Positions 632-36,399 of a DNA stretch of 36,399 nucleotides are shown here, one piece after another (the stretch's first letter is position 1; each line of letters opens with the position of its first letter). This DNA comes from a virus. The notes below the pieces were generated by a model that was not told the DNA's origin, searched no databases, and saw nothing but the letters and a program-made list of their open reading frames with translations. The position numbers were made by a program, and so were the translations under genes. The stretch lies in IMG/VR virus record IMGVR_UViG_3300031513_000002. One strand, 5' to 3'.

Positions 632-1740
632 TTGATGAAATCTCGCGTGGAGCTGAACAGCTCCGCAAAAGCCTGAGCGATGCGACCAAGGCCCTGCGGG
701 AGCAGCGGAAGCTGCTGTCGGAAACTGTCCAGGGCATTGGTCAGGCAGCACCTGCTGGCCAGCGGGTGCTGAATCTCGACCGGCAGGGCGCAGTGCTTAA
801 CGCCCGGGCCATCACACGGGCTTTGCAAGCAGGCGGAGCGGATCGCACTGGGCGTACCGAAGGCCCTGCCACTGTACCAAGTGCCCTGTGGAGCGTAGGC
901 GAGCAAGTGACAGGGCGTGCCTTCGGTTCGCCAGGCCGACTGCTCATGCGAGCCTTAAGAGGCCTGGGCGCCCGCGGGGCCGGAACAGCGGCTGCGGAGG
1001 CTGGCACGGCGGGAGGCGGTCAATTGGCCGGTCTGCTGCGGGGAGTGCCGCTGGGCAGGCTGGGTACAGCCCTGCTAGGGAAAGCCGGTGCTGGGGCGGC
1101 GGCAGGCGGGGCCGGAGCAGGGGCAGCCGGGGGCGGGGCGGCAGCCGGTGGAGCCGCAGCAGCCGGCGCGGCGGCATTGGGGACGGTGGCGGCAGTCGTC
1201 GGGGCCATTGTCGGTCTGGTGGCAGGCATCATATTGGCCACCAAATTTCTGGGCAAACTGGCCGCCAGCGTGCGAGAGGCCGCCGAGGCTTCGCTGGAAG
1301 CCAAGCGGAAGTACGCGGAAGTGGTGCCGTCAATCGCCGCCGTACTGTCGCGTAAAGAGGTCTTCGAGCTGCGGGAGCGTGCCAAGCGGGGACGAATGGT
1401 CGCCCCATTGGCCGAGGCGGAATTAAAGAGCTATCAGCGATGGGCTGAACAAACTCGTAGCATTGAAATTCTTGGCGAAACAACCGCCGCAGCCGTGAAG
1501 CTAGGCTTCCGTGAAGCCTTGCTACCGGTTCTGCGACTGTTGGAGCCGATTGCCAATTGGGCGTTGAAGAAGCTGGGGATGATCGAAAAAGACTACGACA
1601 TCAAGTCTCCCTTGGAGCACCCGATTCTAAAAGCCTTCGAGTATATGCGGCAAGCACAAATGGGGCTTTATTGGGGCAGAAGGGACTACAGGGAACGCCG
1701 CAAACCGCCAAGGCCGTTCAATCCGGGGCCAGGAGAGTAG
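604..1740 (+). CDS. Tail tape measure protein (short, 378 aa)
   Basis: GTG start. The N-terminus is helical, followed by a long Gly/Ala-rich hydrophobic segment (AGAGAAAGGAGAGAAGGGAAAGGAAAAGAAALGTVAAVVGAIVGLVAGIILA). It follows the frameshifted chaperone pair. Confidence 0.6.
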   Translation: MALEEYARIVDEISRGAEQLRKSLSDATKALREQRKLLSETVQGIGQAAPAGQRVLNLDRQGAVLNARAITRALQAGGADRTGRTEGPATVPSALWSVGEQVTGRAFGSPGRLLMRALRGLGARGAGTAAAEAGTAGGGQLAGLLRGVPLGRLGTALLGKAGAGAAAGGAGAGAAGGGAAAGGAAAAGAAALGTVAAVVGAIVGLVAGIILATKFLGKLAASVREAAEASLEAKRKYAEVVPSIAAVLSRKEVFELRERAKRGRMVAPLAEAELKSYQRWAEQTRSIEILGETTAAAVKLGFREALLPVLRLLEPIANWALKKLGMIEKDYDIKSPLEHPILKAFEYMRQAQMGLYWGRRDYRERRKPPRPFNPGPGE

Positions 1741-1741
1741 A

Positions 1742-3583
1742 ATGGCCACGCGCGTCATCTACAACGATGTTGTTCTCAATAATGTGCTGATTCGGGAATT
1801 CCGACAGGAAGTGGTCTATGACGCGAGCCGCACCGACAGTCTTTTCAGTCGATACACTATTACCGTCGAAGGCTTGATCACAGATTACGCCGCCGGAGTG
1901 CATGTCACGGATCGCTATGGAACGCGACAGCGAAGCAACGAGTGGCTTCGCACCTTGCGGATCGCGCTGTCGGAACCGCGACGACAACTGCGGATCGAGC
2001 AGGTGGAATGGCTTGGCGGGCAGGAACGGGCTGAAGTGATCTTGTGGTGTGATCCCGCCGACCAGTCTCCGAGCAACCCTGCCCGTGATCTGAGTAACGG
2101 CCCGAAGCCGATCGACTTGCAGGTCAAGGCGTTTCTGGGAACTCACGCAATCCGGATCGTGTGGACGGTCCAATGCGACCTGCTCCAGCCGCCGATGAAC
2201 AGCCATGAGCTTTCTTTTTTGGATGGCTACCAGGAACCACAGCCGGTGCTGGACAATCGTTGGAGCGTGGCCGAGGAGTTCGATGAAAATCTCTTCTGCA
2301 CTCGCACGATCAGCGGTTCGCTGCGGATGAGCGTTGCGGCGGCCAAGACGGGATTTGATTACCGATGGCTGGCAGTGCCGGGACTGGAAGCAGGATTCAA
2401 AAGGCAGCGAATGCGGTACGCCGTGCAGCCTGACGGTCTGGAGGTGCAATACGAGATCCAGGACCGGCAGTGGCACACCATGCCTCCCTGGCCCTGCACC
2501 GACATGCGGATTCGCCACCAACGCAGCACTAACTACGGACTGAATCACCTGGCCGTTTGTGACGTCGAATTGTCTGGCCCACCCTACGCCCCCAAAACCG
2601 CACTTCTGTGTCGGCTGGCCCAAATCCTGGATTTTTATTTGGGTCTCTTGCAGAACGCCAAGAACTACAGCAAGACCTGGACGATTCGTCAAGCAGACCT
2701 GATTGAAGAGGTCGGCCCACAAAACCGGGTCTCGGGCCGGATCGAAATCCAGATTCTCGGACCGGTCGATGAGAAGACCAAAAGTTATAGCGATGAGTTC
2801 TTGACACAGCACTTGATGTCGATGGGCCGCGACCTGGATTTGACTGGGCAGCCTGATCCGCAAGTCCCCCATCATCAGTCACCTGGTCCTTACTCGCCGA
2901 GCATTGCGGAAATGCCCAGTCCCTTTGGCTACAACACATGGGGAGGCGAACGCAACGCTGGGGTGATCGCCCTGTTCCAATGCTATTTGCAGCGACCCTA
3001 TCGACCGCCTCATGGGATGGCCAACTGGCCCGCTCCACAACCCGAAGAATCCGAAAAAGAGGCCCGCGAAAAGCCAACCAAAGTGGAACGTGTGCCCGCC
3101 GATCAGCTCGTTCCGGAACGGAGCGACAACTACTCTGACGAGCACAAACAGAACCTGTACACATACGTGCGGATGAAGAATGTCTACTCGATCGACCTGA
3201 TGAAAGTCGGCTGTCCGCAGATCTACGACGCCAATCGCAAAACAACCCAAGTCATACAGCTTGCCCAGCAAACCGTCCGGCGAACCGTTTTGTATGACGC
3301 AGAGCGGCTGGGCACCTGGCCGGAGCTTCCGCAGCCGACCGATTACGAATTGCCGGGGGGCAACAAGGCAGTGCTGGTCAAATACAAGATTTCGCCGTTT
3401 CCGCCGACGACCAGTGCCACCGGCGAAGGTTTGATCTACCGCGTGCAAGGCCGCTACCAGTGGATTCTGGAAGAACCTCTGGAGCAGGACCAGCACTGGC
3501 CGCTGGGCCATCTGCCGCACGTGGATGACAAGACAGACGGATTTTTGCCCTCGTTCGCGGAGCGGATCGGGCCGAAGTCATAA
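1742..3583 (+). CDS. Tail or baseplate structural protein (distal tail or hub position), function unknown
   Basis: 613-aa ORF with RBS aggagag, starting 2 nt after the tape measure stop. Called from synteny only. Confidence 0.4.
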   Translation: MATRVIYNDVVLNNVLIREFRQEVVYDASRTDSLFSRYTITVEGLITDYAAGVHVTDRYGTRQRSNEWLRTLRIALSEPRRQLRIEQVEWLGGQERAEVILWCDPADQSPSNPARDLSNGPKPIDLQVKAFLGTHAIRIVWTVQCDLLQPPMNSHELSFLDGYQEPQPVLDNRWSVAEEFDENLFCTRTISGSLRMSVAAAKTGFDYRWLAVPGLEAGFKRQRMRYAVQPDGLEVQYEIQDRQWHTMPPWPCTDMRIRHQRSTNYGLNHLAVCDVELSGPPYAPKTALLCRLAQILDFYLGLLQNAKNYSKTWTIRQADLIEEVGPQNRVSGRIEIQILGPVDEKTKSYSDEFLTQHLMSMGRDLDLTGQPDPQVPHHQSPGPYSPSIAEMPSPFGYNTWGGERNAGVIALFQCYLQRPYRPPHGMANWPAPQPEESEKEAREKPTKVERVPADQLVPERSDNYSDEHKQNLYTYVRMKNVYSIDLMKVGCPQIYDANRKTTQVIQLAQQTVRRTVLYDAERLGTWPELPQPTDYELPGGNKAVLVKYKISPFPPTTSATGEGLIYRVQGRYQWILEEPLEQDQHWPLGHLPHVDDKTDGFLPSFAERIGPKS

Positions 3584-3595
3584 GGAGCGCACACG

Positions 3596-5161
3596 ATGCA
3601 GTTGTACAGTCAGACCGGCGACGATGGTCTGTTGAACTTGTTGGCCAAGGTCTTCGCCGCCGCCAACACGCTTGACGGGGCCAGAACCGGGTCGGTTCGC
3701 ACCAAGTTTCAGGCGGTCCGCAACGTGCTGGACCTGATGCCCGAGGCTGGAAACTATCTATCCAGCCTCAACGGCTGGAACGCTGCTGGCGGCAGTCTTC
3801 AGCAGCAGGCAATGACTTTGGCCGAACAGCTCTGTCTGCGGTATGTCGAGGAGCTCGCCTTACCGCGACCGACGATTACCGATGCCTTGCATTTAATCCT
3901 CAATGAGCTGGAGGAGCAGGCTTACTACTTCACTGGGTCAGTCGCGGGAATCACCCTTGGGGAGCCCCAATCCAACCAAGGCGATGTGGTGCTCATCACG
4001 ACTCATCGCAATGGTCTTGGCCATACCTGCTTGCTGCTGCCCGAGGAAATTGCAGCTACCATCACCAACAATCGCTTGCGGCTGCAGGGCTACGCCAGAC
4101 ACGAGCGTACCGACCCACAGTGGCCGCAAGGTTCGGGCATCAAGCTCGACCTGTCCTTGGCCACGCCGCAGCAATCCTTGCTGGCCAACGCCGACTTTGA
4201 AACCATTACTGACAATCAACCGGCCAATTGGCTGGTGCGGACCGGCACGCTTGGACAAACCATCCAATGGACGGAACCGGAACAACAACAGCTACAGATT
4301 ACCGGCTCGCCGACCGGCGGCTATTACGTGCTGTATTGGCAATCGCCCACCGGTCGAGAATGGGAAACCCCAGCCATCCCCTACAATGCCAACGCCAGTA
4401 CCATCCAGACGGCGTTGCGGACGATCCCCGGCTTGGAACTGGTGACCGTTTCGGGAACCAACCCATTCACTGTGACTTTCGAGGGCACGCCAGGCGACAT
4501 CAGCCAACTGACGGCGATGAATCGCTTGACCGGGGGTTCCAACCCGCAGGTCCAGATCACCACTACCCGTCAGGGCGATCCGGGCAGTTACCGCGGCCGC
4601 AGTCTGCGGCTGGTGGGCAACGGCAGCGAACAGACGATGCTCTTTCAGACAGTGCGGCTTCAGCCGACCACCGTCTACGCCTTCTTTGCCCGCGCGAGGC
4701 GCAGTTCGGGCGCCACCGGCACGCTGCGCTTTGAACTCCGCAAAGGCGTCGATGACGGTCTGCTGATCGACAACAAAGGCGGCCAGAACCGCATTGCGGT
4801 GAACGTGGCCAGTCTCTCGGACAACCAGCATGGGGCGATTACCGGCACGTTCCGTCTGCCGTCACGCGAAAGCACTGTGACTTTCGTGATCCATGTAAGC
4901 ACGGCCTTGCCCGCCAACAAGAGCGTGTATCTGGATGAATTGATCCTTGTGCCGGCCACACAGATGTATGCCGGCGGCCCATTCATCGCCGCTGCCGGCG
5001 GATGGAAGCCGGCCGAAGGCGATCAGTGGACCTTGCAAGTTACTAACGTACCTGGACCGTGGCCCAAGGCATTCGACCGCTACTTGCAGCTTCGCGTGCG
5101 GACTGGGCGTGCCCTGCCTACCTCCGGCACGACACAGATACCCGATTCGCTGTTGGAGTAA
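3596..5161 (+). CDS. Putative receptor-binding or tail fibre protein with a C-terminal jelly-roll, CBM-like domain
   Basis: RBS aaggag. The C-terminal pattern (VYAFFARARRS...GTLRFEL...TFVIHVS...SVYLDELILV) resembles carbohydrate-binding jelly-roll modules. Position is within the tail module. Confidence 0.4.
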   Translation: MQLYSQTGDDGLLNLLAKVFAAANTLDGARTGSVRTKFQAVRNVLDLMPEAGNYLSSLNGWNAAGGSLQQQAMTLAEQLCLRYVEELALPRPTITDALHLILNELEEQAYYFTGSVAGITLGEPQSNQGDVVLITTHRNGLGHTCLLLPEEIAATITNNRLRLQGYARHERTDPQWPQGSGIKLDLSLATPQQSLLANADFETITDNQPANWLVRTGTLGQTIQWTEPEQQQLQITGSPTGGYYVLYWQSPTGREWETPAIPYNANASTIQTALRTIPGLELVTVSGTNPFTVTFEGTPGDISQLTAMNRLTGGSNPQVQITTTRQGDPGSYRGRSLRLVGNGSEQTMLFQTVRLQPTTVYAFFARARRSSGATGTLRFELRKGVDDGLLIDNKGGQNRIAVNVASLSDNQHGAITGTFRLPSRESTVTFVIHVSTALPANKSVYLDELILVPATQMYAGGPFIAAAGGWKPAEGDQWTLQVTNVPGPWPKAFDRYLQLRVRTGRALPTSGTTQIPDSLLE

Positions 5162-5167
5162 CACACG

Positions 5168-5668
5168 ATGGCCGATCGTCAAGACACTACCCGGACGGCT
5201 ATCTTGCAATGGGTGCTCGACCGTCTGCGGACGCAATTGACGCTATCCGACAGCCATTGTTACTTGACCGCCGATGCAATGGCCCCGCCAGTGATTCCGC
5301 CGGGAGATTTCTTTCTGACGGTCAGCCCGGGCGCAGGCCAGTTCGTACTGGGCGAGGCCGCCGTGGGCAATCTCACCGAACATTGGACTTTCCGCGTGCG
5401 ACTGTTTGCTCGCATCGTGGTAGATAAAGCGGGCCAAGACCAGCAGCGGCTCCTGGATGACCAGCGGGGACTATTTGCCTGGCAGCGGAGAGTATTGGCA
5501 GCGCTGACCGGGGCTGACAATCCCGATTGGAACCTGCGGGGCTGGATCGCTCCGGTAACCGCTTCGGAAGTGCAGTGGGTACAAGGTGGGCGGAACGGAG
5601 AATTAAACTACCTGACGATGACCATCGACTTCCAGGCCGATTTCGATTGGGACATTAACCTGTCGTGA
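5168..5668 (+). CDS. Small virion protein (tail or neck completion-like), unknown
   Basis: 166-aa ORF with RBS ggag, tightly packed between tail genes. The stop overlaps the next start (GTGA). Confidence 0.35.
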   Translation: MADRQDTTRTAILQWVLDRLRTQLTLSDSHCYLTADAMAPPVIPPGDFFLTVSPGAGQFVLGEAAVGNLTEHWTFRVRLFARIVVDKAGQDQQRLLDDQRGLFAWQRRVLAALTGADNPDWNLRGWIAPVTASEVQWVQGGRNGELNYLTMTIDFQADFDWDINLS

Positions 5669-7464
5669 GCACGCCGTTCAATTTTCTGCAATTCGATCCT
5701 CAAGGCAGACTGCGGACTTTTTTGGCCCACTGGTTTCCGCCAGACCGTTTGTCTTGGGCTGGGGAAGACCCTTATCGCAGCGTCCATGCCCTGCGGCCCC
5801 GGCCACCGGCGCTGCAACTGCCTCACTGGGGCGACTGGGAGCGATTCGAGGGTCCGGTTATCCTCTCCGATCCGCTGGTGGGTTTGCCGCAAATGCCTTG
5901 GCAAACCAGGCCGCCCGAATTTGTGCTGAACAGCTTGTGGGTGCCGACTGGCGCGAGCCGCAGTAGCATTGGGCTATTCCTCATTGCCGAAGAGTTGGCC
6001 CCGGGCACGGCCGTTGCTTTGACTGTCTACCCCGACACAGAGGCTGAACACCCGTGGAGTTTCTCGCTGGAAGTGCTGTTGTGCCTGCCGTTCACTCAGG
6101 ATGCTTGGCTGGTCGTATTGGTCGATCGTCGCCATCATGAGGCCAGTCGCTTGGTGGCCTTGCCATACTCTTCCTACTGGTGGGATCACTTTAACGCGTT
6201 GCCCTTCCACGATCGCGTCCAGGGTTATCAGCCGCCGAGTGTTCAACCCGACCCGTGGCTGTGGCACCGCCAATTACCCGCTGGACTAGTGCTGGATGCG
6301 CTGGCGGCATGTGCCAACCAGCGGGTTGTGTATGATCTCACAACAGACACTTACATTCTTCAGAATCAGAACGAGGCTGAGGCGGCTTTAGAAGCTAATC
6401 AGCAGCGGTTTGCCAGCATTCCGCCAATGGCCCGGTTTGCACCGAATAGCACGCCAGGCATAGGGCAGGTGGCGGTCAGTTTTCCCGAGGCCCTGCAAAT
6501 CCGCGACGATCTGGTGACATTCCGCCCGGAGGGCAGCCGCCAAGTACGTTCCGAGCATTTAGGCGGCCAAACGCCGGTCAGCGCTTGGACCAGCTTTCCG
6601 TTGATCTATGACCTTCAAGGGCAATTGACCAATGCCGAGCAGGTTCAAGCGGTGCAGGACGCTATTGCTGCCTATTACAGCAGTTGGGGCCGGTATGCCA
6701 CGCATTACCATTTCAGCCTGCCGGTCAGTGGCCGGTGGGATTTGGGCGGCAGCGATGATTATTTCTGGTTGTTCTGGGAACAGCGGGAAACGAAATACTA
6801 TCCGAAACTGCTGGTTTCCAGCCTGCCGCCGGGCTGCTGGCCGGTCGAATGGCCCTTTGGGTGCCAATTGCCCAGCAGTAGCAGTTCGAGCAGTAGTTCG
6901 AGCAGCAGTTCCAGCAGTGAGTCGAGCAGCAGTTCAAGCAGCTCCAGCAGCAGTGCAGGCGGCTGCGGTGGTTTCACGGGAACACTCAACGTGCTGACTA
7001 GCGCTGTACGGACCGGCGACTTTATCAATTTCCAGCGCCGTCGTTTCAACTTCGTTGACGGCTGTCTGGTTGAGGTGCAGGCGGCATCCAACGTCGCGGT
7101 CTATCTATGTTGCCCGGCCAGTTCCAGCAGTGAAAGCAGCAGTCCCAGCAGTTCCAGTAGTTCCAGCAGTGGCAGCAGCAGTCCCAGCAGTTCCAGTACT
7201 TCCAGCAGTGAATCCAGCAGTGAAAGCAGTAGTGAATCCAGCAGTGAAAGCAGTAGTGAATCCAGCAGTGAAAGCAGTAGTGAATCCAGCAGTGAAAGCA
7301 GCAGTGAGTCCAGCAGTGAAAGTTGCCAGGCCTACAATTGCCGCTGGCGGTGGAACGGCTACTGGTGGGAATTGATTAGCGACTGTCCCTACCCGTGTAA
7401 CTGTCCGTATCCCACACGGGATGGCGAGTATGAAGGCGAAGAACTGGAGCAGCCTTGCCAGTGA
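5665..7464 (+). CDS. Tail fibre-like protein with two poly-Ser/(SSSE)n tracts and Cys/Trp-rich C-terminal knobs
   Basis: 599-aa ORF. Ser tracts encoded at 6874-6954 and 7120-7323. The intervening 55-aa segment contains Cys. The terminal segment reads CQAYNCRWRWNGYWWELISDCPYPCNCPYP. Confidence 0.55.
   Translation: MSTPFNFLQFDPQGRLRTFLAHWFPPDRLSWAGEDPYRSVHALRPRPPALQLPHWGDWERFEGPVILSDPLVGLPQMPWQTRPPEFVLNSLWVPTGASRSSIGLFLIAEELAPGTAVALTVYPDTEAEHPWSFSLEVLLCLPFTQDAWLVVLVDRRHHEASRLVALPYSSYWWDHFNALPFHDRVQGYQPPSVQPDPWLWHRQLPAGLVLDALAACANQRVVYDLTTDTYILQNQNEAEAALEANQQRFASIPPMARFAPNSTPGIGQVAVSFPEALQIRDDLVTFRPEGSRQVRSEHLGGQTPVSAWTSFPLIYDLQGQLTNAEQVQAVQDAIAAYYSSWGRYATHYHFSLPVSGRWDLGGSDDYFWLFWEQRETKYYPKLLVSSLPPGCWPVEWPFGCQLPSSSSSSSSSSSSSSSESSSSSSSSSSSAGGCGGFTGTLNVLTSAVRTGDFINFQRRRFNFVDGCLVEVQAASNVAVYLCCPASSSSESSSPSSSSSSSSGSSSPSSSSTSSSESSSESSSESSSESSSESSSESSSESSSESSSESSSESCQAYNCRWRWNGYWWELISDCPYPCNCPYPTRDGEYEGEELEQPCQ
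6874..6954 (+). repeat. Poly-serine coding microsatellite (27 codons, agc/agt/tcg mix, one Glu)
   Basis: Read directly from the sequence and the ORF translation. Confidence 0.9.
7207..7323 (+). repeat. Tandem repeat, 24-nt unit agtgaatccagcagtgaaagcagt, about 4.9 copies (encodes SESSSESS)
   Basis: Copies start at 7207, 7231, 7255 and 7279 (the first three identical, the fourth with one substitution). A degenerate partial copy starts at 7303. Confidence 0.9.
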
Positions 7465-7868
7465 TGAAGTGCGATTGGCAAGAAATCTCGCCTGGACAGT
7501 GGCAATGCCGCCGTTGCGGTACGCTGGTCGTTTCCACGGTCGATGCTGACGGCAAGGTGCTTGTGCCGCCGCTGGACCAATTGCCGCCTTGTGGGCAATC
7601 CGTATTTGGGGCCACCGAGGAGAGGCCCCCAGTGACAGTACAGGCAATCAGCTATGCCAAGGCTTTGGCCCGCTGGATCGCCGCCGGACGACCCACGCGG
7701 CCGCCGGCAATAGTGCAGCAACTCTACCAGGTCTGTACAGCCTGCGATCGTTTCGATCCGGGCGGCGATCGGTGCCGGTTGTGCGGATGCCGGGTCAGCC
7801 AGGATGCCGGCGGCTGGCGAAACAAGATCGCCATGGCCACCGAATCCTGTCCCCTGGGCAAGTGGTGA
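7464..7868 (+). CDS. Small Cys-rich (putative zinc-binding) protein, function unknown
   Basis: ATG at 7464 overlaps the fibre stop (TGATG). Cys motifs: CRRCG, CTACDRF, CRLCGC, ESCPLGKW. Confidence 0.55.
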   Translation: MKCDWQEISPGQWQCRRCGTLVVSTVDADGKVLVPPLDQLPPCGQSVFGATEERPPVTVQAISYAKALARWIAAGRPTRPPAIVQQLYQVCTACDRFDPGGDRCRLCGCRVSQDAGGWRNKIAMATESCPLGKW

Positions 7869-7889
7869 TTAGTTAATTTTAACCAACCG

Positions 7890-8813
7890 ATGCAAAAGCT
7901 GATCCTCCAGGCCAACCTTTCGCCGGGTGACATTCTTACACTGACCGCCGCAGTCTATTCCCTGCACCGCACCTATCCGGGAGAGTATCTGACCGACGTG
8001 CGGACTTCTGCCAGCGAAATCTGGCAAAATAACCCGGACATTACCTCCCTGGACATCGGCGATGCTGCTGTGCAACGCATCGACATGCACTATCCATCGA
8101 TCCAGCGTTCCAATCAGGAGCCAGTGTCGTTCATTGCCGGCTACACCGAGTTTCTCGGTCAACAGCTTGGCCGCCCGCTGGTTTGTCGCATTAACCGCCC
8201 GGTTCTGTACTTATCAGAACAAGAATTAGCCATGCCTTGCCCGATACAGGAGCACTATCCACACGCGAAGCTCCGGCCCTTCTGGTTGCTCTGTGCAGGA
8301 ACCAAGCGTGACTACACGGCCAAGCAGTGGCCCATCGAGCATTACCAACAAGTCGTCGAAGCCACGCGGGGATGGATGCAGTGGGTGCAGATTGGTGCCC
8401 GTGAACACGACCATCCGCCGCTGCAGGGTGTGATTGACATGCGGGGTAAGACCACTCACCGGCAGTTGATCCGCTTGGCTTATCACGCCTGCGGCGGTTT
8501 GGGGCCCAGCACTTACCTACAGCACCTGATGGCCGCCTGGCAACGGCCTTACATCCTGCTGCTGGGAGGCCGCGAGCCGGCGACTTGGCAATCGTACCCA
8601 TTGCAGCACACCCTGCACACGATCGGTTGTTTGCCCTGTTGTGCTGCCGGAGCTTGCTGGCGGAGCCGAGTAGTCCCGCTGGGCGACGGATCAGATAAAG
8701 ATCGGTCTTTATGTGTACGGCCCGTGCTCGGCTGGAGCCGTCCGTTTGCCGAGTGCATGGGCCGGATCACACCGGAGGAAGTTTTATGCCTGCTGCGGAG
8801 GCTGTGCCGATGA
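7890..8813 (+). CDS. Glycosyltransferase family 9 (ADP-heptose-dependent heptosyltransferase)-like protein
   Basis: Layout typical of GT9. N-terminal SPGDILTLTAAV...YPG...NNPDI. Then CAGTKRDYTAKQWPIEHY, GKTTHRQLIRLAYHACGGLGPSTYLQHL, LLLGGREP, and a C-terminal CLPCC...CW...AECMGRITPEEV. Confidence 0.6.
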   Translation: MQKLILQANLSPGDILTLTAAVYSLHRTYPGEYLTDVRTSASEIWQNNPDITSLDIGDAAVQRIDMHYPSIQRSNQEPVSFIAGYTEFLGQQLGRPLVCRINRPVLYLSEQELAMPCPIQEHYPHAKLRPFWLLCAGTKRDYTAKQWPIEHYQQVVEATRGWMQWVQIGAREHDHPPLQGVIDMRGKTTHRQLIRLAYHACGGLGPSTYLQHLMAAWQRPYILLLGGREPATWQSYPLQHTLHTIGCLPCCAAGACWRSRVVPLGDGSDKDRSLCVRPVLGWSRPFAECMGRITPEEVLCLLRRLCR

Positions 8814-9625
8814 ACTTGCCTGCCTTCAGGCGACAGGGCCGATTGTATGAGATTCCCGCCGCAACGGCTTCGCCGGACTATGCCATAGTCATCGGGACTT
8901 TCGCAGCAGTCCCATATATTCACTTGCACCTTGAAGCCCGGCGTCGGCTCTATCCGCACGTCCCTTGTCTGGTGCATGACGACTGTAGCCCAGTGCAAGA
9001 ACGACTGTTGGAATTGTGCCGACAATATGGGGCCATCTTTGCGGCCAATACAACCCGGTTTCCACCCACTTTGGGCGATCTGAGCGCGCTGTACGACGGT
9101 CTTCTCTGGGCCGACGAAATCGGCGCTGGCATATTGGTGAAGTTCTCGCGGCGGTTCGTGCCCATCACCGATTGGAGGCCGTCGCTGATGAGGCTGGTCC
9201 AGGCCAGCGACTATCACACCTACTCCTCGTGGACGACAAGCTTCAATTTCGGGTTTCGCACAGAGGCGATGGCTTTAGCGGTGGAAGCGTGGCACAAGGC
9301 AGGCTGTGTGGCTCGGATTGGTGAAGCAATCGCCAACTGGCGTGAAGTGTTTGTCGAGGGATTCGTACACAATCTGGCCCGCAGCATCCCACTGTCTGCC
9401 AAAGCCCAGGCGTGGGATCGTCGCGTTGGGCCGCGCCCAGCAGACCGCAACGGCTACGCCCCTTGGGACTGGCTGGGAACAGACCGTTGCACCGCTACCG
9501 TACACTGGTTGTGGCACGACTCACACGGCGCTGACGCCTACGCGGAACTGGCTCGCTTCTGGGGATTGCCTTACCAGATAGCGGATTTTCTGGACCCGAA
9601 TATGGGACATGGCACCCGACCTTGA
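8786..9625 (+). CDS. Putative second glycosyltransferase-like protein (GT-A-like N-terminus), uncertain
   Basis: Strong RBS ggagga 6 nt before the ATG at 8786 (the ORF opens at 8711). YAIVIGTFAAVPYIHLHLEARRRLYPHVPCLVHDDCSP resembles the start of GT2-type folds. The gene overlaps both neighbours. Confidence 0.3.
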   Translation: MPAAEAVPMNLPAFRRQGRLYEIPAATASPDYAIVIGTFAAVPYIHLHLEARRRLYPHVPCLVHDDCSPVQERLLELCRQYGAIFAANTTRFPPTLGDLSALYDGLLWADEIGAGILVKFSRRFVPITDWRPSLMRLVQASDYHTYSSWTTSFNFGFRTEAMALAVEAWHKAGCVARIGEAIANWREVFVEGFVHNLARSIPLSAKAQAWDRRVGPRPADRNGYAPWDWLGTDRCTATVHWLWHDSHGADAYAELARFWGLPYQIADFLDPNMGHGTRP

Positions 9626-11081
9626 AAAAGTAGCCAACCACCCCCGGATTCTACTGGTAGGCGATCTGATGCTCGACCGGTACATCTGGGGCGACGTGGA
9701 GCGGATCAGCCCCGAGGCCCCGGTGCCGGTGCTGCGGGTGCGGCAGTCCGAAGATCGACCAGGCGGAGCCGGCAGCGTGGCTGCGATGCTGGCCATGCTG
9801 GGGGCCGAAACATCGCTGGCAGGCGTGACCGGCGACGATCCCGAAGGCCACGCAGTCCGCCAGTTGCTGGCCGAGATCAACGTGGACTGTTCAGCCCTGC
9901 TGTTCGAGCCGAGCCGAATTACAACAGTCAAGCAACGGCTGCTGGGCAGCACCCAGGGAAAGCATCCGCAACAGATGCTGCGCGTCGATCAGGAGCAAGC
10001 CGAGCCGATCAGCCAGCAGACCACAGAGCAACTGCTGGAAACAGTCGCTGGTCGCATCGCACAGGTCGATCTGATCCTCATTAGCGACTACAACAAGGGC
10101 GTCTGCGCAGGCGAGATGATCCCTCGGCTGGTCGAGCTGGCCCGGGCGGCCGGGGTACCGGTCATTGCCGACCCTTGCAAAGGAGCCGACTACCGCCGAT
10201 ACGCCGGCTGCACGTGCATCACACCCAACCGCCGAGAGGCTGAACTGGCGGCAGGTATGAGCATCACCAGCCCCCAAGAGGCAATCGAGGACGGCCGCAG
10301 ACTGCTTGGCTTCGGCTTGCAATCCGTAGTCGTCACGCTAGACCGCGACGGGATGGTATGGGTGGATGCGGCTGGCCATGCCGAGCACTTCCCTTGCCGG
10401 CCTAGAGAGGTGTGCGATGTCACCGGAGCCGGCGACATGGTGCTGGCCATGCTGGGCTATTGCCTGGCCGCTGGCATGGACTGGCCAGCGGCGATCCGGC
10501 TGGCCAACATCGCTGGCGGGCTGGAGGTAGAGCGACTGGGTGCGATACCGATCGGCTGGCCAGAGATTCTGGCGGAACTGTCGCCGAAATGCGGCCACGG
10601 AAGGGCCTCAGCGGCCCCAGGATCAAAGATTCGGCCCTTGGACGATCTTCTGGTCGAGCTGGCCAGGCGACGCGAAAAAGGCCAAAAAGTAGCCTTTACC
10701 AATGGCTGCTTCGACCTGCTGCACCCCGGCCATGTGGCCTTGCTTCAGGCGGCCCGACGACTAGGCGATTGCCTGGTGGTCGGTCTGAACAGCGACCGCA
10801 GCGTGCAGCAACTGAAAGGCCCGGGCCGGCCGATCATTCCGCAGGAGGACCGGGCGGCGATGCTGACCGCCCTGGAATGTGTTGATTACGTGGTGCTTTT
10901 CGACCAATTGACACCGGCGGAATTGATAAGCACGATCCGGCCTGATGTTCTCATCAAAGGCAGCGATTACCAGCCGCAGCAGGTAGTTGGCCGGGAAGTG
11001 GTGGAAAGCTACGGCGGTCTGGTCGTCTGCCTGCCGATCAAAGGCAACTATTCAACCACTCGTTTGCTTGCCCAGGCCTAG
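9609..11081 (+). CDS. hldE: Bifunctional D-beta-D-heptose 7-phosphate kinase / D-beta-D-heptose 1-phosphate adenylyltransferase (HldE/RfaE)
   Basis: N-terminal PfkB-type sugar kinase (ILLVGDLMLDRY, SPEAPVPV, GGAGSVA, DVTGAGD). C-terminal cytidylyltransferase-like domain (FTNGCFDLLHPGHVALL, VVGLNSD, KGSDY). The 490-aa length matches HldE. Confidence 0.85.
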   Translation: MAPDLEKVANHPRILLVGDLMLDRYIWGDVERISPEAPVPVLRVRQSEDRPGGAGSVAAMLAMLGAETSLAGVTGDDPEGHAVRQLLAEINVDCSALLFEPSRITTVKQRLLGSTQGKHPQQMLRVDQEQAEPISQQTTEQLLETVAGRIAQVDLILISDYNKGVCAGEMIPRLVELARAAGVPVIADPCKGADYRRYAGCTCITPNRREAELAAGMSITSPQEAIEDGRRLLGFGLQSVVVTLDRDGMVWVDAAGHAEHFPCRPREVCDVTGAGDMVLAMLGYCLAAGMDWPAAIRLANIAGGLEVERLGAIPIGWPEILAELSPKCGHGRASAAPGSKIRPLDDLLVELARRREKGQKVAFTNGCFDLLHPGHVALLQAARRLGDCLVVGLNSDRSVQQLKGPGRPIIPQEDRAAMLTALECVDYVVLFDQLTPAELISTIRPDVLIKGSDYQPQQVVGREVVESYGGLVVCLPIKGNYSTTRLLAQA

Positions 11082-11162
11082 CCGACTTCTCCACTGGCTG
11101 CCACTGAACATTTCCACCGCGGCGGCTCCCCTCTCTTATTGGTCTATGCGTTGGTTGGAGCG

Positions 11163-11209
11163 GTTCCCTCACACGGTGGAGGTCGCGCGTTCGAATCGCG
11201 CGCCGCCCA
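11163..11209 (+). other. Putative attP core: 3' fragment of a tRNA gene (anticodon-loop-like CTCACAC, AGGTC variable loop, T-arm gcgcg-ttcgaat-cgcgc, acceptor 3' strand gccgccc plus discriminator a)
   Basis: The T-arm and acceptor 3' strand are canonical, but no matching 5' acceptor or D-arm lies upstream. Xis-like and integrase genes follow directly. Confidence 0.55.
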
Positions 11210-11212
11210 TTT

Positions 11213-11280
11213 GGCAGGTGCCCGGTGCCGTGAGGGCCGGGGGGCTAGCTCCGCTGCCTGAACACACCTGCCGCCTTTTC
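11213..11280 (+). terminator. Hairpin (ggcaggtg ... cacctgcc, with inner cccgg/ccggg stem) followed by a T-rich tract
   Basis: Inverted repeats read directly. The structure starts 4 nt after the tRNA-like 3' end and closes the long + strand tail and sugar operon. Confidence 0.35.
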
Positions 11281-11315
11281 TTGCAAATTATTTCAGCGGC
11301 ATATAGAATAGGGGC

Positions 11316-11540
11316 ATGCGAGTGCTCGAACCCACCTCTGAGCGATTGTTGACCGTGGCCGAGGCTGCGGCGCTTTTGGGGGTTACGCCAGGCCGCATCT
11401 GCCAAATGCTTTGGGCTGGCCAAATGGCAGGGCAAAAAGTTGGCGTCATCTGGCTGATCCCGGAACGGGAGGTCTTGCGCCACCGGGAGCGGCCGTCTAA
11501 GGTGGGCCGGCCGCGTTCTGGCGAGTTGCGGCGCAGCTAA
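11316..11540 (+). CDS. xis: Excisionase / AlpA-type helix-turn-helix DNA-binding protein
   Basis: LLTVAEAAALLGVTPGRICQMLWAGQMAGQKVGVIWLIPEREV matches the excisionase-family HTH pattern. It lies between the att fragment and the integrase. Confidence 0.6.
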   Translation: MRVLEPTSERLLTVAEAAALLGVTPGRICQMLWAGQMAGQKVGVIWLIPEREVLRHRERPSKVGRPRSGELRRS

Positions 11541-11573
11541 AGCAATCGATTTGGGCAAGAAGCGAGTTCCCTA

Positions 11574-11602
11574 TTGACGGATTTTATACGCCGCTATATA
11601 AT
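11574..11602 (+). promoter_or_regulatory. Near-consensus sigma70-type promoter TTGACG-N17-TATAAT
   Basis: Read directly. AT-rich island in a GC-rich intergenic region, 244 nt upstream of the integrase ATG. Confidence 0.55.
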
Positions 11603-11845
11603 GCGGCCGTTCAAAAGCGGAGCATTCTCTGAGCCTGCTGTAGCTCGCTTAGTGGGTGCTCCACCGGGCGTCCCAAGAGGGAAGCCAACTGACCAGAATT
11701 GCCGACGGAAAGGGGGCACCCGTGCTTTCGGATGGGTGGGTTGCTCTGCCTTATGCTACCAATAGAGGGATCGCCTGGTCCATCCGGCGGCCCTTCGGGA
11801 GCATGGCGGCCACCAGGGCTGCCAATGCTTCTGTGAGGTGCTGCC

Positions 11846-12760
11846 ATGAGACTTGTCGAGTTGGCTCAACGCTATGCTGCCGTCCAGTATCTCCAAAAAG
11901 CGTCACGCGATCTGTATCTGCGCGTGGCTCGCACCGCGGAGGCTATCTGCGGCGCCGACGTTTCTTGCATCACCGAAGAATCCCTGCATATTCTGGCGGG
12001 ACGATTAGTTGCTGCCAGGAAATCCGAAACTGCCAGCGATTATCTGCGGCGCCTGAGAACCTTGTTGACATTCGCTTGGCAGTTGCGGTTGATCGACGAT
12101 TTGCCGCGGGTGTGGCCGAAAATCAGAACGGCCGCTCCGCTGCCAGAGGCCTGGACTTCCGAGCAAGTTGCCAAGCTATTTCTGGTTGCCACCGAGCAAC
12201 CGGGCTGGCTTGGCCCGCACAAAGCAAGCTCCTGGTGGCGAGCCTTCTTGTCTGTGGCCTGGGAAACCGGCTTGCGTGTATCCCAGATGTTTCGCCTCCG
12301 CTGGGCCGACGTGGATTACGCACACCGATGCATCGTGATTCAGGCCTGCCCAGGAACGAAGAGTTATCGGCCGCAGATCAAGCCCTTGTCCGTCGAGTGT
12401 CTGGCAGCGCTGGAGCTGCTGGCCGAGCCGCCCAGGGAACTGATCTTCTGCTGGCCGGAGTGGCCGAAGTCCAGGCGGGATTTCTTCTCGGTCTGGCGCT
12501 ATCTGTGCTGGCTGGCCGGTATTCCGGCACCCCGCAGCCAAAGACAGCTCACGCATCGCTGGCGGCGGTCGAGCGTGACCGAAGCGGCCCGCAACAGTCT
12601 GGAAGCCGCACGCCGCCATGCTGGGCACACCAGCCCAGAGACAACACTGCGGCACTATGTCGATCCCCGTCTGCTCATCCAGCAGCCCCCGCCCGTTCCA
12701 CCGCTGCACGTGCTGCTCAAAGCGAATGGACAGGGAAATGCCAAACCGGCCGCATACTGA
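11846..12760 (+). CDS. int: Tyrosine recombinase / phage integrase
   Basis: Catalytic-domain motifs: ETGLRVSQMFRLRWADVD (Arg I), THRWRRS (H-x-x-R), HAGHTSPETTLRHY (His and the nucleophilic Tyr). Confidence 0.85.
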   Translation: MRLVELAQRYAAVQYLQKASRDLYLRVARTAEAICGADVSCITEESLHILAGRLVAARKSETASDYLRRLRTLLTFAWQLRLIDDLPRVWPKIRTAAPLPEAWTSEQVAKLFLVATEQPGWLGPHKASSWWRAFLSVAWETGLRVSQMFRLRWADVDYAHRCIVIQACPGTKSYRPQIKPLSVECLAALELLAEPPRELIFCWPEWPKSRRDFFSVWRYLCWLAGIPAPRSQRQLTHRWRRSSVTEAARNSLEAARRHAGHTSPETTLRHYVDPRLLIQQPPPVPPLHVLLKANGQGNAKPAAY

Positions 12761-12789
12761 GGCCGGTACTGCCCCTAGCGGACAGCCGT

Positions 12790-13245
12790 TCAACGGCGGC
12801 GAAGCCATTGCAGCCAGCGGCCAAGGCGGTCACGCCACGACAATGGCTGGCCCGTCTTGGCCAACTGGGCCAGGCGGAAACCCTGTCCCGTCAAAGTGAA
12901 CATGTTCGCCTGGACGTGGCGGATCAGGCCGCGCCAGCAAAGGCGCTCGAAGGCGTCCAGGTGAAGAGCCGCCTCGGCCGGGGCTTCGGTCGAATCCCAC
13001 TGACGGCCGCCGCAGTGGAGCACCAGCCCGCCGTTGACCTGAACCAGTTGGATCAGGCCGTCGTCGGCGACAGCGGCCAGGATTTCGCGTTCCTCCGGCG
13101 TGAAGCCGCCTTTGAGGATCGGAAAAATGGTGCGGGCAGTCATTACGGCTTTTTCGCAGAGCGTGATCATGGTAATAATTGTTTGCAGATAATCCATGGC
13201 ATGATCTCCTGGACAGGGGCCGCCGGCGGTGTCGGACATTGCCAC
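12790..13245 (-). CDS. Hypothetical protein, leftward, divergent from the XRE gene (candidate lysogeny or immunity function)
   Basis: One of only two leftward coding regions in the genome. An alternative start at 13197 has RBS ggaga. No recognisable motif. Confidence 0.45.
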   Translation of the reverse strand: MAMSDTAGGPCPGDHAMDYLQTIITMITLCEKAVMTARTIFPILKGGFTPEEREILAAVADDGLIQLVQVNGGLVLHCGGRQWDSTEAPAEAALHLDAFERLCWRGLIRHVQANMFTLTGQGFRLAQLAKTGQPLSWRDRLGRWLQWLRRR

Positions 13246-13480
13246 CGGCGGCCCCAGCTATTTTATTACCCACAACCCCGCCGACTGACCAGCCGGGGGG
13301 TTGCCCCAGTTGCCGGGCGGATGGTCCGCCCGGGGGCTTACTTACACAAGCGGGTGCTTGCGACCTACGTGCCGCGTCCCCCGGCTGGTTTTTTGAGCTA
13401 TTTTCTGACAGGGCAAGTCGTTACAATCCCCGCCCCGTTGTCGAAACTGTGGTTTTCAACACGCTATCCAGGGGCAACAC

Positions 13481-13723
13481 ATGACGCCGAAACGAAAAGA
13501 GCCAGACATGAGCACGTATTCAGGTCGCTTGGCCGCGCGGCTGCGGCAATTGCGAGAACGTCGAGGGCTGACTGTGGAAGATGTGGCGACCAAATTGGGC
13601 GTGGACAGGTTTCGCATCTACAAATGGGAATCGGGGGTCGCTTGTCCACCCTACGACTTGTTGCCTGCACTGAGCGCAGCCTACGGGTTAAAAACGGTTC
13701 GCGCGTTGCTGCCCGAACATTGA
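13481..13723 (+). CDS. XRE-family (Cro/CI-type) HTH transcriptional regulator
   Basis: LRQLRERRGLTVEDVATKLGVDRFRIYKWESG is a classical XRE HTH. Confidence 0.8.
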   Translation: MTPKRKEPDMSTYSGRLAARLRQLRERRGLTVEDVATKLGVDRFRIYKWESGVACPPYDLLPALSAAYGLKTVRALLPEH

Positions 13724-13740
13724 TTGGAAAACTTTTCCAA
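13724..13740. promoter_or_regulatory. Perfect 17-nt palindrome TTGGAAAA-C-TTTTCCAA (operator-like); a third half-site TTTTCCAA lies at 13757-13764
   Basis: Read directly. It abuts the XRE stop codon and overlaps the promoter below. Confidence 0.5.
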
Positions 13741-13747
13741 CAGACTA

Positions 13748-13775
13748 TTGACTTATTTTTCCAATATGGTAGACT
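13748..13775 (+). promoter_or_regulatory. Sigma70-like promoter TTGACT-N16-TAGACT for the early rightward operon
   Basis: Read directly in an AT-rich island. An operator half-site sits in the spacer. Confidence 0.4.
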
Positions 13776-13816
13776 ACTGCTAGCCTGTGGGCTGGCAGTG
13801 CGAAGCGAACAATTTG

Positions 13817-13872
13817 AACCCCGACGGGCACACCGGACACTGCCAGCCCCGGCCCCCGTCGGGGTTTTCGTT
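13817..13872 (+). terminator. Terminator or attenuator-like hairpin aaccccgacggg-N26-cccgtcggggtt followed by ttcgttt
   Basis: 12-bp perfect inverted repeat plus a T-rich tail, between the promoter at 13748 and the first early gene at 13889. Confidence 0.4.
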
Positions 13873-13888
13873 TGAAGGGGGCACGCCA

Positions 13889-14062
13889 ATGAAAAAAAGC
13901 GGCAATTTGGCCAACGCCCCACAAGTGCAATTCCACGAACTTGCCGACGTGTTCCCGCTGCTGTCAGAGGCCGAACTAGACTCGCTGACCGAGGACATCC
14001 GCCAGCACGGGCTGCGGGAGCCGATCGTTCTTTATCAGGGCAAGGTGCTCGATGGCCGCTGA
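13889..14062 (+). CDS. ParB-like N-terminal domain fragment (58 aa), truncated inside the conserved LDGR-NR motif
   Basis: RBS gaaggggg. [36 protein letters not shown] then a stop. The expected continuation (R-x-R-A-) appears in another frame from 14062 (RMRSARVLL...). Confidence 0.5.
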
Positions 14063-14138
14063 GAATGCGCAGCGCCCGGGTGCTGCTGTACCAGGTGACT
14101 TGCGAGGATTGCGAAAGAACCACAAAGGAATCGCACGG

Positions 14139-15170
14139 ATGACGCGGTTTGCTGAGGTACGACAAACGCAGCTTGCCGCTGCTGACAGCGCCTGCCGCAA
14201 ACAGCTCGCGCTTGTTCGCAACGCTCAGCGTGCGCTGTCTGAGGCTCGGACTGTGGACGAGGTGAAAAAGGTCCGCGACATCGCCGCCGCCGCCACCCAC
14301 TTGCTGCAGGTGGCAAAGGCCAGCTACGAAGCCTGCTGCGAAGCTGCGATCCTCAAGCTGGACGCGGAACGCAAGGCGGGCGAAATGCTGGAAAAGATGC
14401 CGAAACACAAGGGCGGACGGCCGGCCAAAAACCGGCGACACGATGTCACCGGTTTTCCTGTGTCGTATGACGAGCTAGGCATCGACAAAAAATACGCAGA
14501 GCGCTGGCAAGCCGAGGCAAGTGTGCCGGAGCAGCACTATCACGCTTACATCGCCGACTGTAGGGAAATTGGGCGGATTCCCACGTCCAGCGGCCTGGTC
14601 ACGCTGGCAAGGCGGCTGGAAAAGACGGCTGAACTGGAAGCGATCGCCGCGATGCGTGTACCGCCGATCCAGGGCGTGTATGACGTGGTGGTAATCGACC
14701 CACCGTGGCCGATTAAAAAAGTCGAGCGTGAAGTGCGTCCAAATCAGGCTGAGATGGATTACCCCGTGATGTCACTTGAGGACATACAGGGACTGTCGGT
14801 GCCATGTGCTGACAATTGCCACGTGTGGCTCTGGACCACACATCGCTTCGTACCGGCCGCCTTTGAGATATTGCAGGCATGGCAATTGAAGTACGTTTGC
14901 ACGTTTGTATGGCACAAGCCAGGCGGCTTCCAGCCGGTCGGGCTGCCCCAGTTCAATTGCGAGTTCGCGTTGTACGCCCGGCGAGGCACGCCGGTCTTCC
15001 TGGACACCAAAGGCCTGAAGGTGTGCTTCACCGCGCCGCGAGGTGAACACAGCGAAAAGCCGGACGCCTTTTACGAGATGATTCGGCGCTGCACTGGCGG
15101 TCGGCGGCTGGACATGTTCGGCCGACGCCAAATAGAGGGATTTGAAAGTTGGGGCAACCAGGCACCATGA
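14139..15170 (+). CDS. MT-A70 family N6-adenine DNA methyltransferase (the ORF is open from 14052)
   Basis: DPPW catalytic motif ([11 protein letters not shown]), [27 protein letters not shown]. The ATG at 14139 overlaps the stop of the short third-frame ORF (ATGA). Confidence 0.8.
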
Positions 15171-36340: not shown

Positions 36341-36399
36341 ACAGGAAGGTTTTCTCTATGCTCGGACGGTTATGGCGTCGCTGGCGGCTCCGCCGCAGC
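36341..36399. repeat. Terminal direct repeat, copy 2
   Basis: Exact 59-nt match to 1-59. It contains the RBS and first codons of the ORF that starts at 18. Confidence 0.95.

Follow-up and report, generated by a model that had tools for sequence, protein, structure and literature searches.

A candidate serine O-heptosylation cassette beside a poly-serine fibre-like gene in a temperate phage genome

We analysed a viral DNA of 36,399 nucleotides (nt), IMG/VR virus record IMGVR_UViG_3300031513_000002 (the whole stretch at its full length is called the window below), and concentrated on five plus-strand genes at 5665-11081. We propose, with a probability of roughly 0.55, that these genes form one late-expressed cassette whose enzymes O-heptosylate, in the cytoplasm, the poly-serine (poly-Ser) stalks of the fibre-like protein encoded by the first gene, giving a mucin-like virion fibre. 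The host would supply GmhA and GmhB, and the phage HldE would supply the donor ADP-heptose. A soluble family 9 glycosyltransferase (GT9) would act in the cytoplasm and initiate the glycan, attaching heptose to Ser hydroxyls in both poly-Ser stalks of the directly upstream gene's product, and ORF4, a predicted GT-A-fold enzyme, would add or extend a second sugar. A Cys-rich protein resembling DUF6171 could serve as an adaptor, docking the enzymes onto one another or onto the substrate, and the glycosylated stalk with its small Cys-rich tip domain would then be assembled into the virion. The donor sugar is suggested by GT9 family membership and by linkage to HldE, the acceptor by gene linkage, and the timing by operon structure. 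The elements of the cassette are as follows, with lengths in amino acids (aa) or nt.

5665-7464, plus strand: Ser-rich fibre-like protein, 599 aa; stop codon TGA at 7462-7464; final gene of the tail block 604-7464
6874-6954, plus strand: poly-Ser tract 1 of the fibre-like protein, 27 aa, 26 of them Ser
7120-7323, plus strand: poly-Ser tract 2, 68 aa, including an (SSSE)n block
7324-7461, plus strand: Cys-rich C-terminal knob, 46 aa, CQAYNCRWRWNGYWWELISDCPYPCNCPYP...; a tip module that recurs on stalks rich in S or T
7464-7868, plus strand: Cys-rich protein, 134 aa; its ATG shares one base with the fibre stop
7869-7889: intergenic gap, 21 nt, AT-rich, TTAGTTAATTTTAACCAACCG
7890-8813, plus strand: GT9 glycosyltransferase (PF01075)
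8786 or 8810 to 9625, plus strand: ORF4, GT-A fold; overlaps the GT9 gene by 28 nt (start at 8786) or shares an ATGA with the GT9 stop (start at 8810)
9609-11081, plus strand: HldE; 17-nt overlap with ORF4

Gene order and linkage to serine-rich reading frames

A sequence-only reading of this DNA had described four packed or overlapping plus-strand genes after the Ser-rich gene, starting with a Cys-rich open reading frame (ORF) of 134 aa whose ATG overlaps the fibre stop and interrupted by a 21-nt AT-rich gap before the GT9 gene. All of these ORFs and overlaps are present, including the single shared base at 7464 and the gap at 7869-7889. For ORF4, the database twin P0121 is 279 aa long, which fits the start at 8786. 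A scan with the sigma-70 consensus, which may not apply to Planctomycetota, found no promoter-like site on the plus strand of 5000-11100, and the one terminator-like site on that strand of the interval is weak and lies inside the fibre gene (5996-6013). Promoter-like sites first appear at 11281-11309, before xis, and at 11574-11602, before int, where 11 of 12 positions match. The idea of a single late cassette is supported by the 1-nt, ATGA and 17-nt overlaps and by the lack of a promoter-like site before the att region.

The chief new evidence comes from a comparison with other loci that encode this GT9 family. We assembled 47 viral, 30 genomic and several metagenomic loci, 71 of which are non-redundant, and counted an ORF as Ser-rich if some 30-aa window holds at least 15 Ser, and as upstream if it ends no more than 3.5 kb 5′ of the GT9 gene on the same strand. 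Such an ORF was found in 28 of the 71 non-redundant loci, against about 2.0 expected from the density elsewhere in the same loci (Poisson P about 1e-22, with loci treated as independent though many are related), and Ser-rich ORFs are about 14-fold denser directly 5′ of the GT9 gene than elsewhere in these loci. At GT9 identities of at least 48%, 23 of 39 loci have an upstream Ser-rich ORF. When Ser and Thr are counted together, an ORF of this kind lies within 3.5 kb on either side in 33 of 71 loci, whereas the rest of the sequence, 720 kb, holds 10. A parallel bias is seen for HldE-type genes, whether fused or split: the clade with at least 48% identity has them in 24 of its 45 loci and the distant clade in 2 of 32, and among the 17 loci of the closer clade that have 5 kb on both sides the number is 12. 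Of the two readings that the first analysis had left open, heptosylation of the adjacent poly-Ser fibre is the one that the comparative evidence, and this Ser-rich linkage in particular, favours.

Outside their tracts, the partner Ser-rich ORFs are not homologous to the fibre of the window; what stays constant is thus the Ser tract. These unrelated partners nonetheless have a common architecture, in which an N-terminal domain is followed by a Cys-flanked S-rich (in some cases S/P-rich) stalk and by a tiny Cys-rich C-terminal module of one of a few types, the knob of the window protein among them. On a 1.2-Mb contig (L053), the GT9 gene follows an 800-aa S/P mucin-like ORF and sits beside mobile-element genes (primase, insertion sequence and ParB-methylase). 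The GT9 gene of a 3.55-Mb chromosome begins 28 nt after the end of a gene for a small membrane protein that has a poly-Ser tail. The complete genome of Schlesneria sp. T3-172 (NZ_CP172346.1) holds, at about 1.231-1.252 Mb, a prophage (locus L055) with the order tail tube, tail genes, two Ser-rich ORFs, Cys-rich gene, GT9 and adenylyltransferase, followed by a GT9+GT34 fusion, an FkbM methyltransferase, a PfkB kinase and then host genes.

The enzyme between GT9 and HldE varies even among close relatives. Its place is taken by ORF4 in the window, by a fusion of GT9 to Methyltransf_24 in two loci (L100 and L101) whose Cys-rich protein is 87% identical to that of the window, and in L001 by Methyltransf_24 together with an unknown protein; genes for a mannosyltransferase, GT8 or GT34 occur in other clusters. 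Such exchange of the middle enzyme is what one would expect if the glycan were exposed and diversifying. Some planctomycete clusters also encode, directly 3′ of a stand-alone heptose adenylyltransferase, another and larger GT9-like protein that carries a fused GT-A domain of the GT34 or GT2-like type (L062:11417-13366 and L055:11319-13115), and in these clusters HldE is often split into kinase and adenylyltransferase genes.

Relatives of the tail protein at 1742-3583 were sought as GT9-free controls; a single-protein scan found none and an alignment-based scan found four loci. One relative (L096; TerL 60%, portal 62% and capsid 75% identical) was rejected as a negative control, as it carries poly-Thr fibres and its contig ends where a DUF6171-like gene starts. 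At L096:12522-17560 it encodes two fibre proteins with long poly-Thr stalks instead of poly-Ser and with the same Cys-rich knob motif.

The proteins of the cassette

The fibre-like protein consists of an N-terminal domain (aa 1-403), poly-Ser tract 1, a 55-aa Cys-flanked module, poly-Ser tract 2 and the C-terminal Cys-rich knob. The earlier label of tail fibre rests on the place of this protein after the tail genes and on its domain layout; the 599-aa protein has no match in Pfam, PHROG, PDB or INPHARED. Its N-terminal domain gave nothing significant in a PDB sequence search and no match among INPHARED proteins, a scan of viral contigs found no close relatives of it, and among the GT9 loci it matches only L021. 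The poly-Ser tracts are in frame with non-repetitive domains on both flanks, and their Ser codons are mixed (AGC 47, AGT 39, TCC 17, TCG 4, TCT 2, TCA 1). The possibility that the tracts reflect a GC-rich repeat read out of frame was considered and rejected, the frame being continuous with conserved non-repetitive flanking domains. A 24-nt tandem repeat at 7203-7322 of the window (5 copies, 96% matches) encodes (SSSESSSE)n, and slippage there could alter stalk length.

Knobs similar to that of the window protein terminate the Ser-rich ORFs of five further loci (L013-L015, L017, L018) and are present in the poly-Thr fibres of L096. The recurring motif, of 45-60 aa, is C..C.W.W..G.YW.L...C..C.CP.P and belongs to no database family. 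The knob is probably the receptor-binding tip of the stalks. In L001-L003, L100 and L101, assemblies break within Ser-repeat DNA just 5′ of the Cys-rich gene, and in L100 gene callers chose the wrong frame of the repeat (AVNPAVKAVV...). Because assemblies break in Ser repeats and callers misread the frame, such fibres are likely to be under-annotated in metagenomes.

The GT9 protein (307 aa) matches PF01075 over residues 121-241 at 34.8 bits against a cut-off of 22. Its AlphaFold2 (AF2) model, made with an alignment of 52 homologs, has a predicted local distance difference test score (pLDDT) of 94, and the top Foldseek matches in the PDB are WaaF (1PSW, 5e-12), TibC (4RAP/4RB4, 6e-10), Veillonella GT9 / 3TOV and WaaC (5e-8). 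The assignment to GT9, on which the sequence-only reading had staked its proposal, thus held in the profile hidden Markov model search, with PF01075 passed and the GT-B fold confirmed. Template modelling (TM) scores of about 0.5-0.7 to all GT9 structures identify the fold as GT9 and give no sub-clade placement, and an attempt to separate TibC-like from WaaF-like kinship by Foldseek failed, all GT9 structures scoring alike at a TM of about 0.6. Sequence searches of the PDB with the single GT9 sequence, with the GT9 profile and with the C-terminal 85 aa returned nothing significant. Among 50,697 deposited phage records (INPHARED), none yielded a GT9 homolog of this clade; GT9-fold proteins, one of them auto-annotated ‘Aah/TibC’, exist among uncultured phage proteins.

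We compared this protein with TibC from enterotoxigenic Escherichia coli (ETEC) H10407 and with WaaC, WaaF, WaaQ and WaaU from E. coli K-12. It does not look like an enzyme of the lipopolysaccharide (LPS) core. The LPS heptosyltransferase models (TIGR02193, TIGR02195, TIGR02201 and NF007742) gave it 14-16 bits against cut-offs of 135-467, the best being TIGR02195 with 16 bits against 134.6. By a crude sequence-based measure, the net charge of its N-lobe is -4 (family mean -3.7), compared with +2 to +9 for the four E. coli Waa enzymes and +1 for TibC.

TibC and Aah are soluble cytoplasmic GT9-fold enzymes that hyperglycosylate Ser residues of surface proteins (TibA and AIDA-I) with ADP-heptose before export or assembly, and TibC carries an iron finger formed by C339, C342, C358 and C370 (PMC4358343). 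The phage GT9 is only about 16% identical to them, has no match to the Aah/TibC model TIGR04414 even at E<=10 (TibC itself scores 613 bits), and lacks the N-terminal beta-barrel that forms TibC residues 1-97; its first strand-helix unit, residues 2-28, is an ordinary GT9 start. Five cysteines in a C-lobe insertion (C250, C251, C256, C275 and C289) are invariant in 52 sequences. An hhalign comparison pairs C247, C256, C275 and C289 with the four TibC finger residues, although weakly (E=0.03, probability 1.7%), the patterns being GC..GCW...LWC....FEC.(R)LIT in TibC and GC......ACW...SLC....AEC.(R)IT in the phage protein. The insertion falls late in the C-lobe, by this alignment in an equivalent place, and the knuckle itself differs, CC-x4-C in the phage GT9 versus C-x2-C in TibC. 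No Cys cluster occurs at the equivalent place in WaaC, WaaF, WaaQ or WaaU. The TibC-like Cys finger is a resemblance and not a proof, and to judge from these comparisons the GT9 stands outside the Aah/TibC family but may work like a member of it.

The Cys-rich protein has a conserved C-terminal part of 65 aa, WIAAGRP..CxxC..CxLCGC..NKIAMATESCPxGKW, with six invariant Cys (C91, C94, C104, C107, C109 and C129), and matches phrog_13558 (E=1.6e-7). The Pfam family DUF6171 (PF19668) is no closer than a distant relative: the 15.6 bits of the window protein fall short of the cut-off of 27, and 4 of 16 relatives match, the best with E=8e-6. A profile search of 1.84 billion representative proteins returned 5,785 clusters at E<=1e-3, the majority of them small stand-alone proteins. 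Six of ten longer members tested against Pfam are fusions to sugar-modifying enzymes, the partners being a GT9 of the same clade (P0290), GT25, GT4, GT2 with a sulfotransferase, a DXD GT32-like domain and an FkbM methyltransferase. In two related phage contigs (L001 and L002), a poly-Ser/Gly tract continues in frame into the Cys-rich domain, and in L008 the Cys-rich gene lies 3′ of GT9 instead of 5′. We read the protein as a stand-alone DUF6171-like domain, predicted to bind metal, that is a recurrent associate of glycosyltransferases. Because the domain is fused both to glycosyltransferases and to a Ser-rich tract, the simplest inference is that it serves as a docking or adaptor module of the glycosylation machinery.

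ORF4 has no Pfam, NCBIfam or PHROG match, and its profile gave nothing significant against PDB sequences. Its family comprises 151 database clusters from Planctomycetota and Verrucomicrobiota, some fused to Methyltransf_24, and has invariant residues, identified from sequence, at D65, D66 and S68 (D65-D66-x-S68) and at G97-D98. The first reading had called this enzyme possibly GT-A-like. With an AF2 model at a pLDDT of 93.6, all of the top 50 Foldseek matches in the PDB are GT-A enzymes (GT8, GT2, GT13 and others; E from 1.5e-6, TM 0.40-0.45), which supports, at the level of the modelled fold, a GT-A glycosyltransferase of an unnamed family.

The last gene had been called a clear bifunctional HldE, and profile searches bear this out. 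PfkB (residues 14-314, E=2.9e-42) and CTP_transf_like (residues 363-454, E=2.9e-19) are both matched in one polypeptide, and the protein also matches phrog_7878. The whole-protein model NF008454 gives E=4e-131 and 437.7 bits, under its cut-off of 521; TIGR02199, for domain II, is passed (193.6 against 181.5), and TIGR02198, for domain I, is not (310 against 345). The prediction of a bifunctional HldE, combining heptose-7-phosphate kinase and heptose-1-phosphate adenylyltransferase, is secure at domain level, but the protein is diverged. No SIS/GmhA, HAD/GmhB or epimerase/HldD domain was found among the approximately 39 larger ORFs of the genome that were scanned, in agreement with the earlier remark that the phage carries none of these three enzymes.

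The attachment site, the genome and its host

The last 59 nt of the window (36341-36399) are identical to its first 59 nt (1-59), so that the window represents a complete temperate phage genome in circular form, with a unique length of 36,340 bp. Its landmarks beyond the cassette are listed here.

11150-11213, no strand assigned: attP core, the 3′ 64 nt of tRNA-Val(CAC)
11214-11283, plus strand: long hairpin followed by a U-rich run, found by RNA folding and missed by the simple terminator scan
11316-11540, plus strand: excisionase-like HTH_17 protein (PF12728, E=2.8e-7), with the promoter-like site 11281-11309 upstream
11846-12760, plus strand: tyrosine integrase (PF00589, E=2.9e-15; phrog_1), with the 11/12 sigma-70-like promoter at 11574-11602
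604-7464: tail block, with a weak tape-measure match and carbohydrate-binding module (CBM) and immunoglobulin (Ig)-like matches
27314-28804: large terminase
33442-34938: Mu-type portal

The tRNA fragment was identified by exact-match search and ARAGORN; Rfam gave the partial tRNA no score. In 8 of 11 metagenome loci, the 35-mer at 11177-11211 forms the 3′ end of a complete tRNA-Val(CAC) gene, and similarity to the tRNA-bearing loci spans 11150-11213. A tRNA-like att fragment had been noticed beside the cassette, and its match to the 3′ ends of real tRNA-Val(CAC) genes, next to xis and int, marks it by sequence as the attP of a tRNA-targeting tyrosine integrase. The hairpin at 11214-11283 is a possible terminator of the late operon.

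Two loci, L085 and L093, are 97-98% identical to the window over att, xis and int. In both, the fibre gene, the Cys-rich gene, GT9 and ORF4 are all absent, hldE survives as a 3′ part only, and the tail-tip genes are different ones with no Ser tracts. Since the four genes are missing jointly, the cassette appears to be gained or lost as a unit. The hldE remnants lie at L093:6035-6589 and L085:2522-2761; the ORF in L093 encodes the adenylyltransferase domain only and is preceded by a helicase/restriction-subunit-like fragment and unrelated tail-tip genes.

Elsewhere the genome encodes a Cro/CI-like helix-turn-helix protein, an MT-A70 methylase, an exonuclease and RusA. The early region of the window includes the MT-A70 family methyltransferase (14052-15170), a PolB-exonuclease-like protein (16745-17599) and a protein with an ABC-ATPase-like N-terminus (17596-19026), and L085 encodes homologs of the latter two that are 97-99% identical. 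A KTSC-domain protein (28816-29631) lies between the large terminase and the head genes. A 739-aa Arg/Ala-rich ORF (11656-13875, plus strand) that crosses the integrase region in another frame is most likely spurious, a product of GC-rich DNA and no gene. Searches of deposited phage genomes (INPHARED) found no DNA similarity to 5000-12800, and a PDB sequence search with the tail protein 1742-3583 gave nothing significant. All 30 cellular loci with GT9 relatives belong to Planctomycetota (Schlesneria, Planctomycetaceae, Pirellulales, Gemmatales, Phycisphaerales and Tepidisphaerales), which points to that phylum as the host.

Target of the heptosyltransferase, known systems and meaning

Several observations weigh against heptosylation of the fibre. 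We infer the acceptor, the sugar and the timing alike. The sigma-70 scan may not fit Planctomycetota, and an internal promoter is possible; moreover, the module adjoins attP, the classical position of lysogenic-conversion genes. No same-strand upstream Ser-rich ORF is present in 43 of the 71 loci, 38 of the 71 have no S/T-rich ORF within 3.5 kb, and loci with no S/T-rich neighbour include several at 49-61% identity (L005, L062-L066, L071, L073-L075). The linkage statistic assumes independence, and many of the loci are related. Fibres and accessory genes both favour the ends of late operons and could adjoin with no enzyme-substrate relation. The relative L096 uses poly-Thr stalks, and there is no GT9 on its incomplete contig. 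Finally, Foldseek places the LPS enzyme WaaF first, and the TibC alignment is as weak as stated above.

GT9 enzymes are best known as LPS heptosyltransferases, and the prophage GT9, ORF4 and HldE might instead add heptose residues to the LPS core or envelope glycan of the host, changing a receptor and blocking superinfection. Such lysogenic conversion was the other reading left open earlier, on account of the position next to attP. That position stands: the module directly adjoins attP, xis and int, the module of Schlesneria sp. T3-172 is directly followed by typical planctomycete host genes, members of the GT9 clade also occur in chromosomal glycan clusters with no phage genes (L005), WaaF is the top structural match, and the weak NCBIfam matches are to LPS types. 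Even so, we consider conversion unlikely. No promoter-like site or gap sets the module apart from the late tail genes, and its genes overlap; it contains no membrane protein, flippase, bactoprenol-linked transferase or ligase, and none of its four proteins has a transmembrane-like segment. The acidic N-lobe is unlike that of LPS heptosyltransferases, and conversion leaves unexplained both the strand-specific linkage to unrelated Ser-rich ORFs and the fusions of Cys-rich and Ser-rich sequence in L001 and L002.

It is similarly improbable, in our judgement, that the phage boosts ADP-heptose in the lytic phase and heptosylates host LPS or Ser-rich surface proteins, for example to stop progeny sticking to debris, with the fibre not a substrate and poly-Ser acting as flexible linkers. 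The HldE-like genes of cyanomyoviruses are annotated as carbohydrate metabolism and lie away from Ser-rich fibres, many GT9 loci have no S/T-rich neighbours, and L096 combines poly-Thr mucin-like stalks with no GT9 found on its contig. That contig, however, ends at the start of its DUF6171-like gene and is not a clean transferase-free control, and a metabolic role sits poorly with the roughly 14-fold density of Ser-rich ORFs directly 5′ of GT9 and with the joint loss of fibre and enzymes in L093 and L085. We give still less credence to a GT9 that acts on another virion protein, such as capsid or tail tube, or that uses a donor other than ADP-heptose, the links to Ser-rich ORFs and HldE being indirect. 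There is a precedent, as far as the account in PMC12619734 goes, in mycobacteriophages, whose capsid and tail-tube C-termini are reported to be glycosylated by phage-encoded transferases; donor specificity is also not readable from sequence, and HldE is under the NCBIfam equivalog cut-offs for the whole protein and the kinase domain. Yet the linkage is specific to Ser-rich ORFs and HldE-type genes, and Ser/Thr-rich ORFs were not found elsewhere in the loci at comparable density.

Cytoplasmic heptosylation of the fibre stalks is also set off in several respects from the systems it calls to mind. The serine-rich repeat glycoproteins of Gram-positive bacteria (GspB, Fap1, PsrP) are O-glycosylated in the cytoplasm by an initiating transferase and then by variable Gly/Gtf enzymes encoded beside the substrate. 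The cassette shares with them Ser-rich repeats and initiating plus variable extending transferases next to the substrate gene, and GlyE of the PsrP system is among the structural matches of ORF4; those glycans, however, start with N-acetylglucosamine (GlcNAc) added by a GT4-type GtfA/B pair, and the proteins are bacterial adhesins that leave by accessory Sec export, not virion proteins. In serotype conversion by P22 and SfV, membrane proteins act on undecaprenyl-linked sugars in the periplasm. Their gtrABC and O-acetyltransferase cassettes occupy the same slot between tail genes and attP/int, whereas the proteins of the window module are predicted to be soluble and match no gtrABC-type family in Pfam, NCBIfam or PHROG. 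With WaaC, WaaF and WaaQ, the phage GT9 shares the family, the GT-B fold and, presumably, ADP-heptose as donor; it differs in its low scores on LPS models, its acidic N-lobe and its extra Cys-cluster insertion. In INPHARED only HldE was matched, by distant cyanomyovirus genes (S-CAM1, P-SSM2, S-SSM7). These too are phage-borne heptose-phosphate kinases/adenylyltransferases (phrog_7878), but they are 29-34% identical, split in two, and found in large lytic genomes beside carbamoyltransferase or halogenase genes.

The closest parallel is Aah/TibC. In ETEC H10407, tibC directly precedes and overlaps tibA, the gene of its Ser-heptosylated substrate, and the phage GT9 gene likewise neighbours a Ser-rich gene, here by adjacency only. 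Beyond the differences of sequence given above, the presumed phage substrate is a disordered poly-Ser stalk and not a set of beta-helix loops, and the planctomycete phage module brings its own HldE and a second transferase. Mycobacteriophages offer a parallel of another kind, with phage-encoded transferases next to structural genes that decorate the virion capsid and tail-tube C-termini (Freeman et al., 2023, as cited in PMC12619734); in that account the targets are not a poly-Ser stalk, the enzymes are not GT9, and no gene for heptose or nucleotide-sugar synthesis is described. Full-text literature searches turned up no account of planctomycete phages with heptose, GT9 or Ser-rich fibres, and none of heptosylated virions. 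Phage HldE-like genes, GT9-fold phage proteins, virion glycosylation and Ser heptosylation by TibC/Aah are already known. The novelty lies in the linkage to Ser-rich ORFs and not in the occurrence of HldE or GT9 genes in a phage; the way the parts are combined, the clade of the enzyme, a poly-Ser stalk as the proposed substrate and the adaptor domain also appear to be new.

More tentatively, and at slightly less than even odds, we suggest that the arrangement is general among planctomycete phages. Their receptor-binding fibres would have mucin-like stalks, poly-Ser or in some relatives poly-Thr, with tiny Cys-rich knobs; the stalks would be O-heptosylated in the cytoplasm by soluble GT9 enzymes that bear a TibC-like metal finger and form a clade specific to planctomycetes, guided by a DUF6171-like adaptor and fed by the phages’ own HldE, and the glycan would be diversified by an interchangeable second enzyme. 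Schlesneria sp. T3-172, whose complete genome carries a related prophage with this module, provides a testable system, and the compact five-gene cassette may offer a means of heptosylating Ser-rich tags. To our knowledge, the only protein O-heptosylation described so far is that of autotransporter adhesins by one family of enterobacterial enzymes, and phage virion glycosylation is known essentially from mycobacteriophages. If our proposal is true, the two would be joined in an unrelated phylum, with the first heptosylated virus particle and a second, independent lineage of protein Ser-O-heptosyltransferases. It would also imply a new fibre design, in which a glycosylated, intrinsically disordered stalk stands in place of a trimeric helix or coiled coil, and would give a working role to a very large, uncharacterised Cys-rich domain family, of thousands of clusters, that is repeatedly fused to glycosyltransferases.

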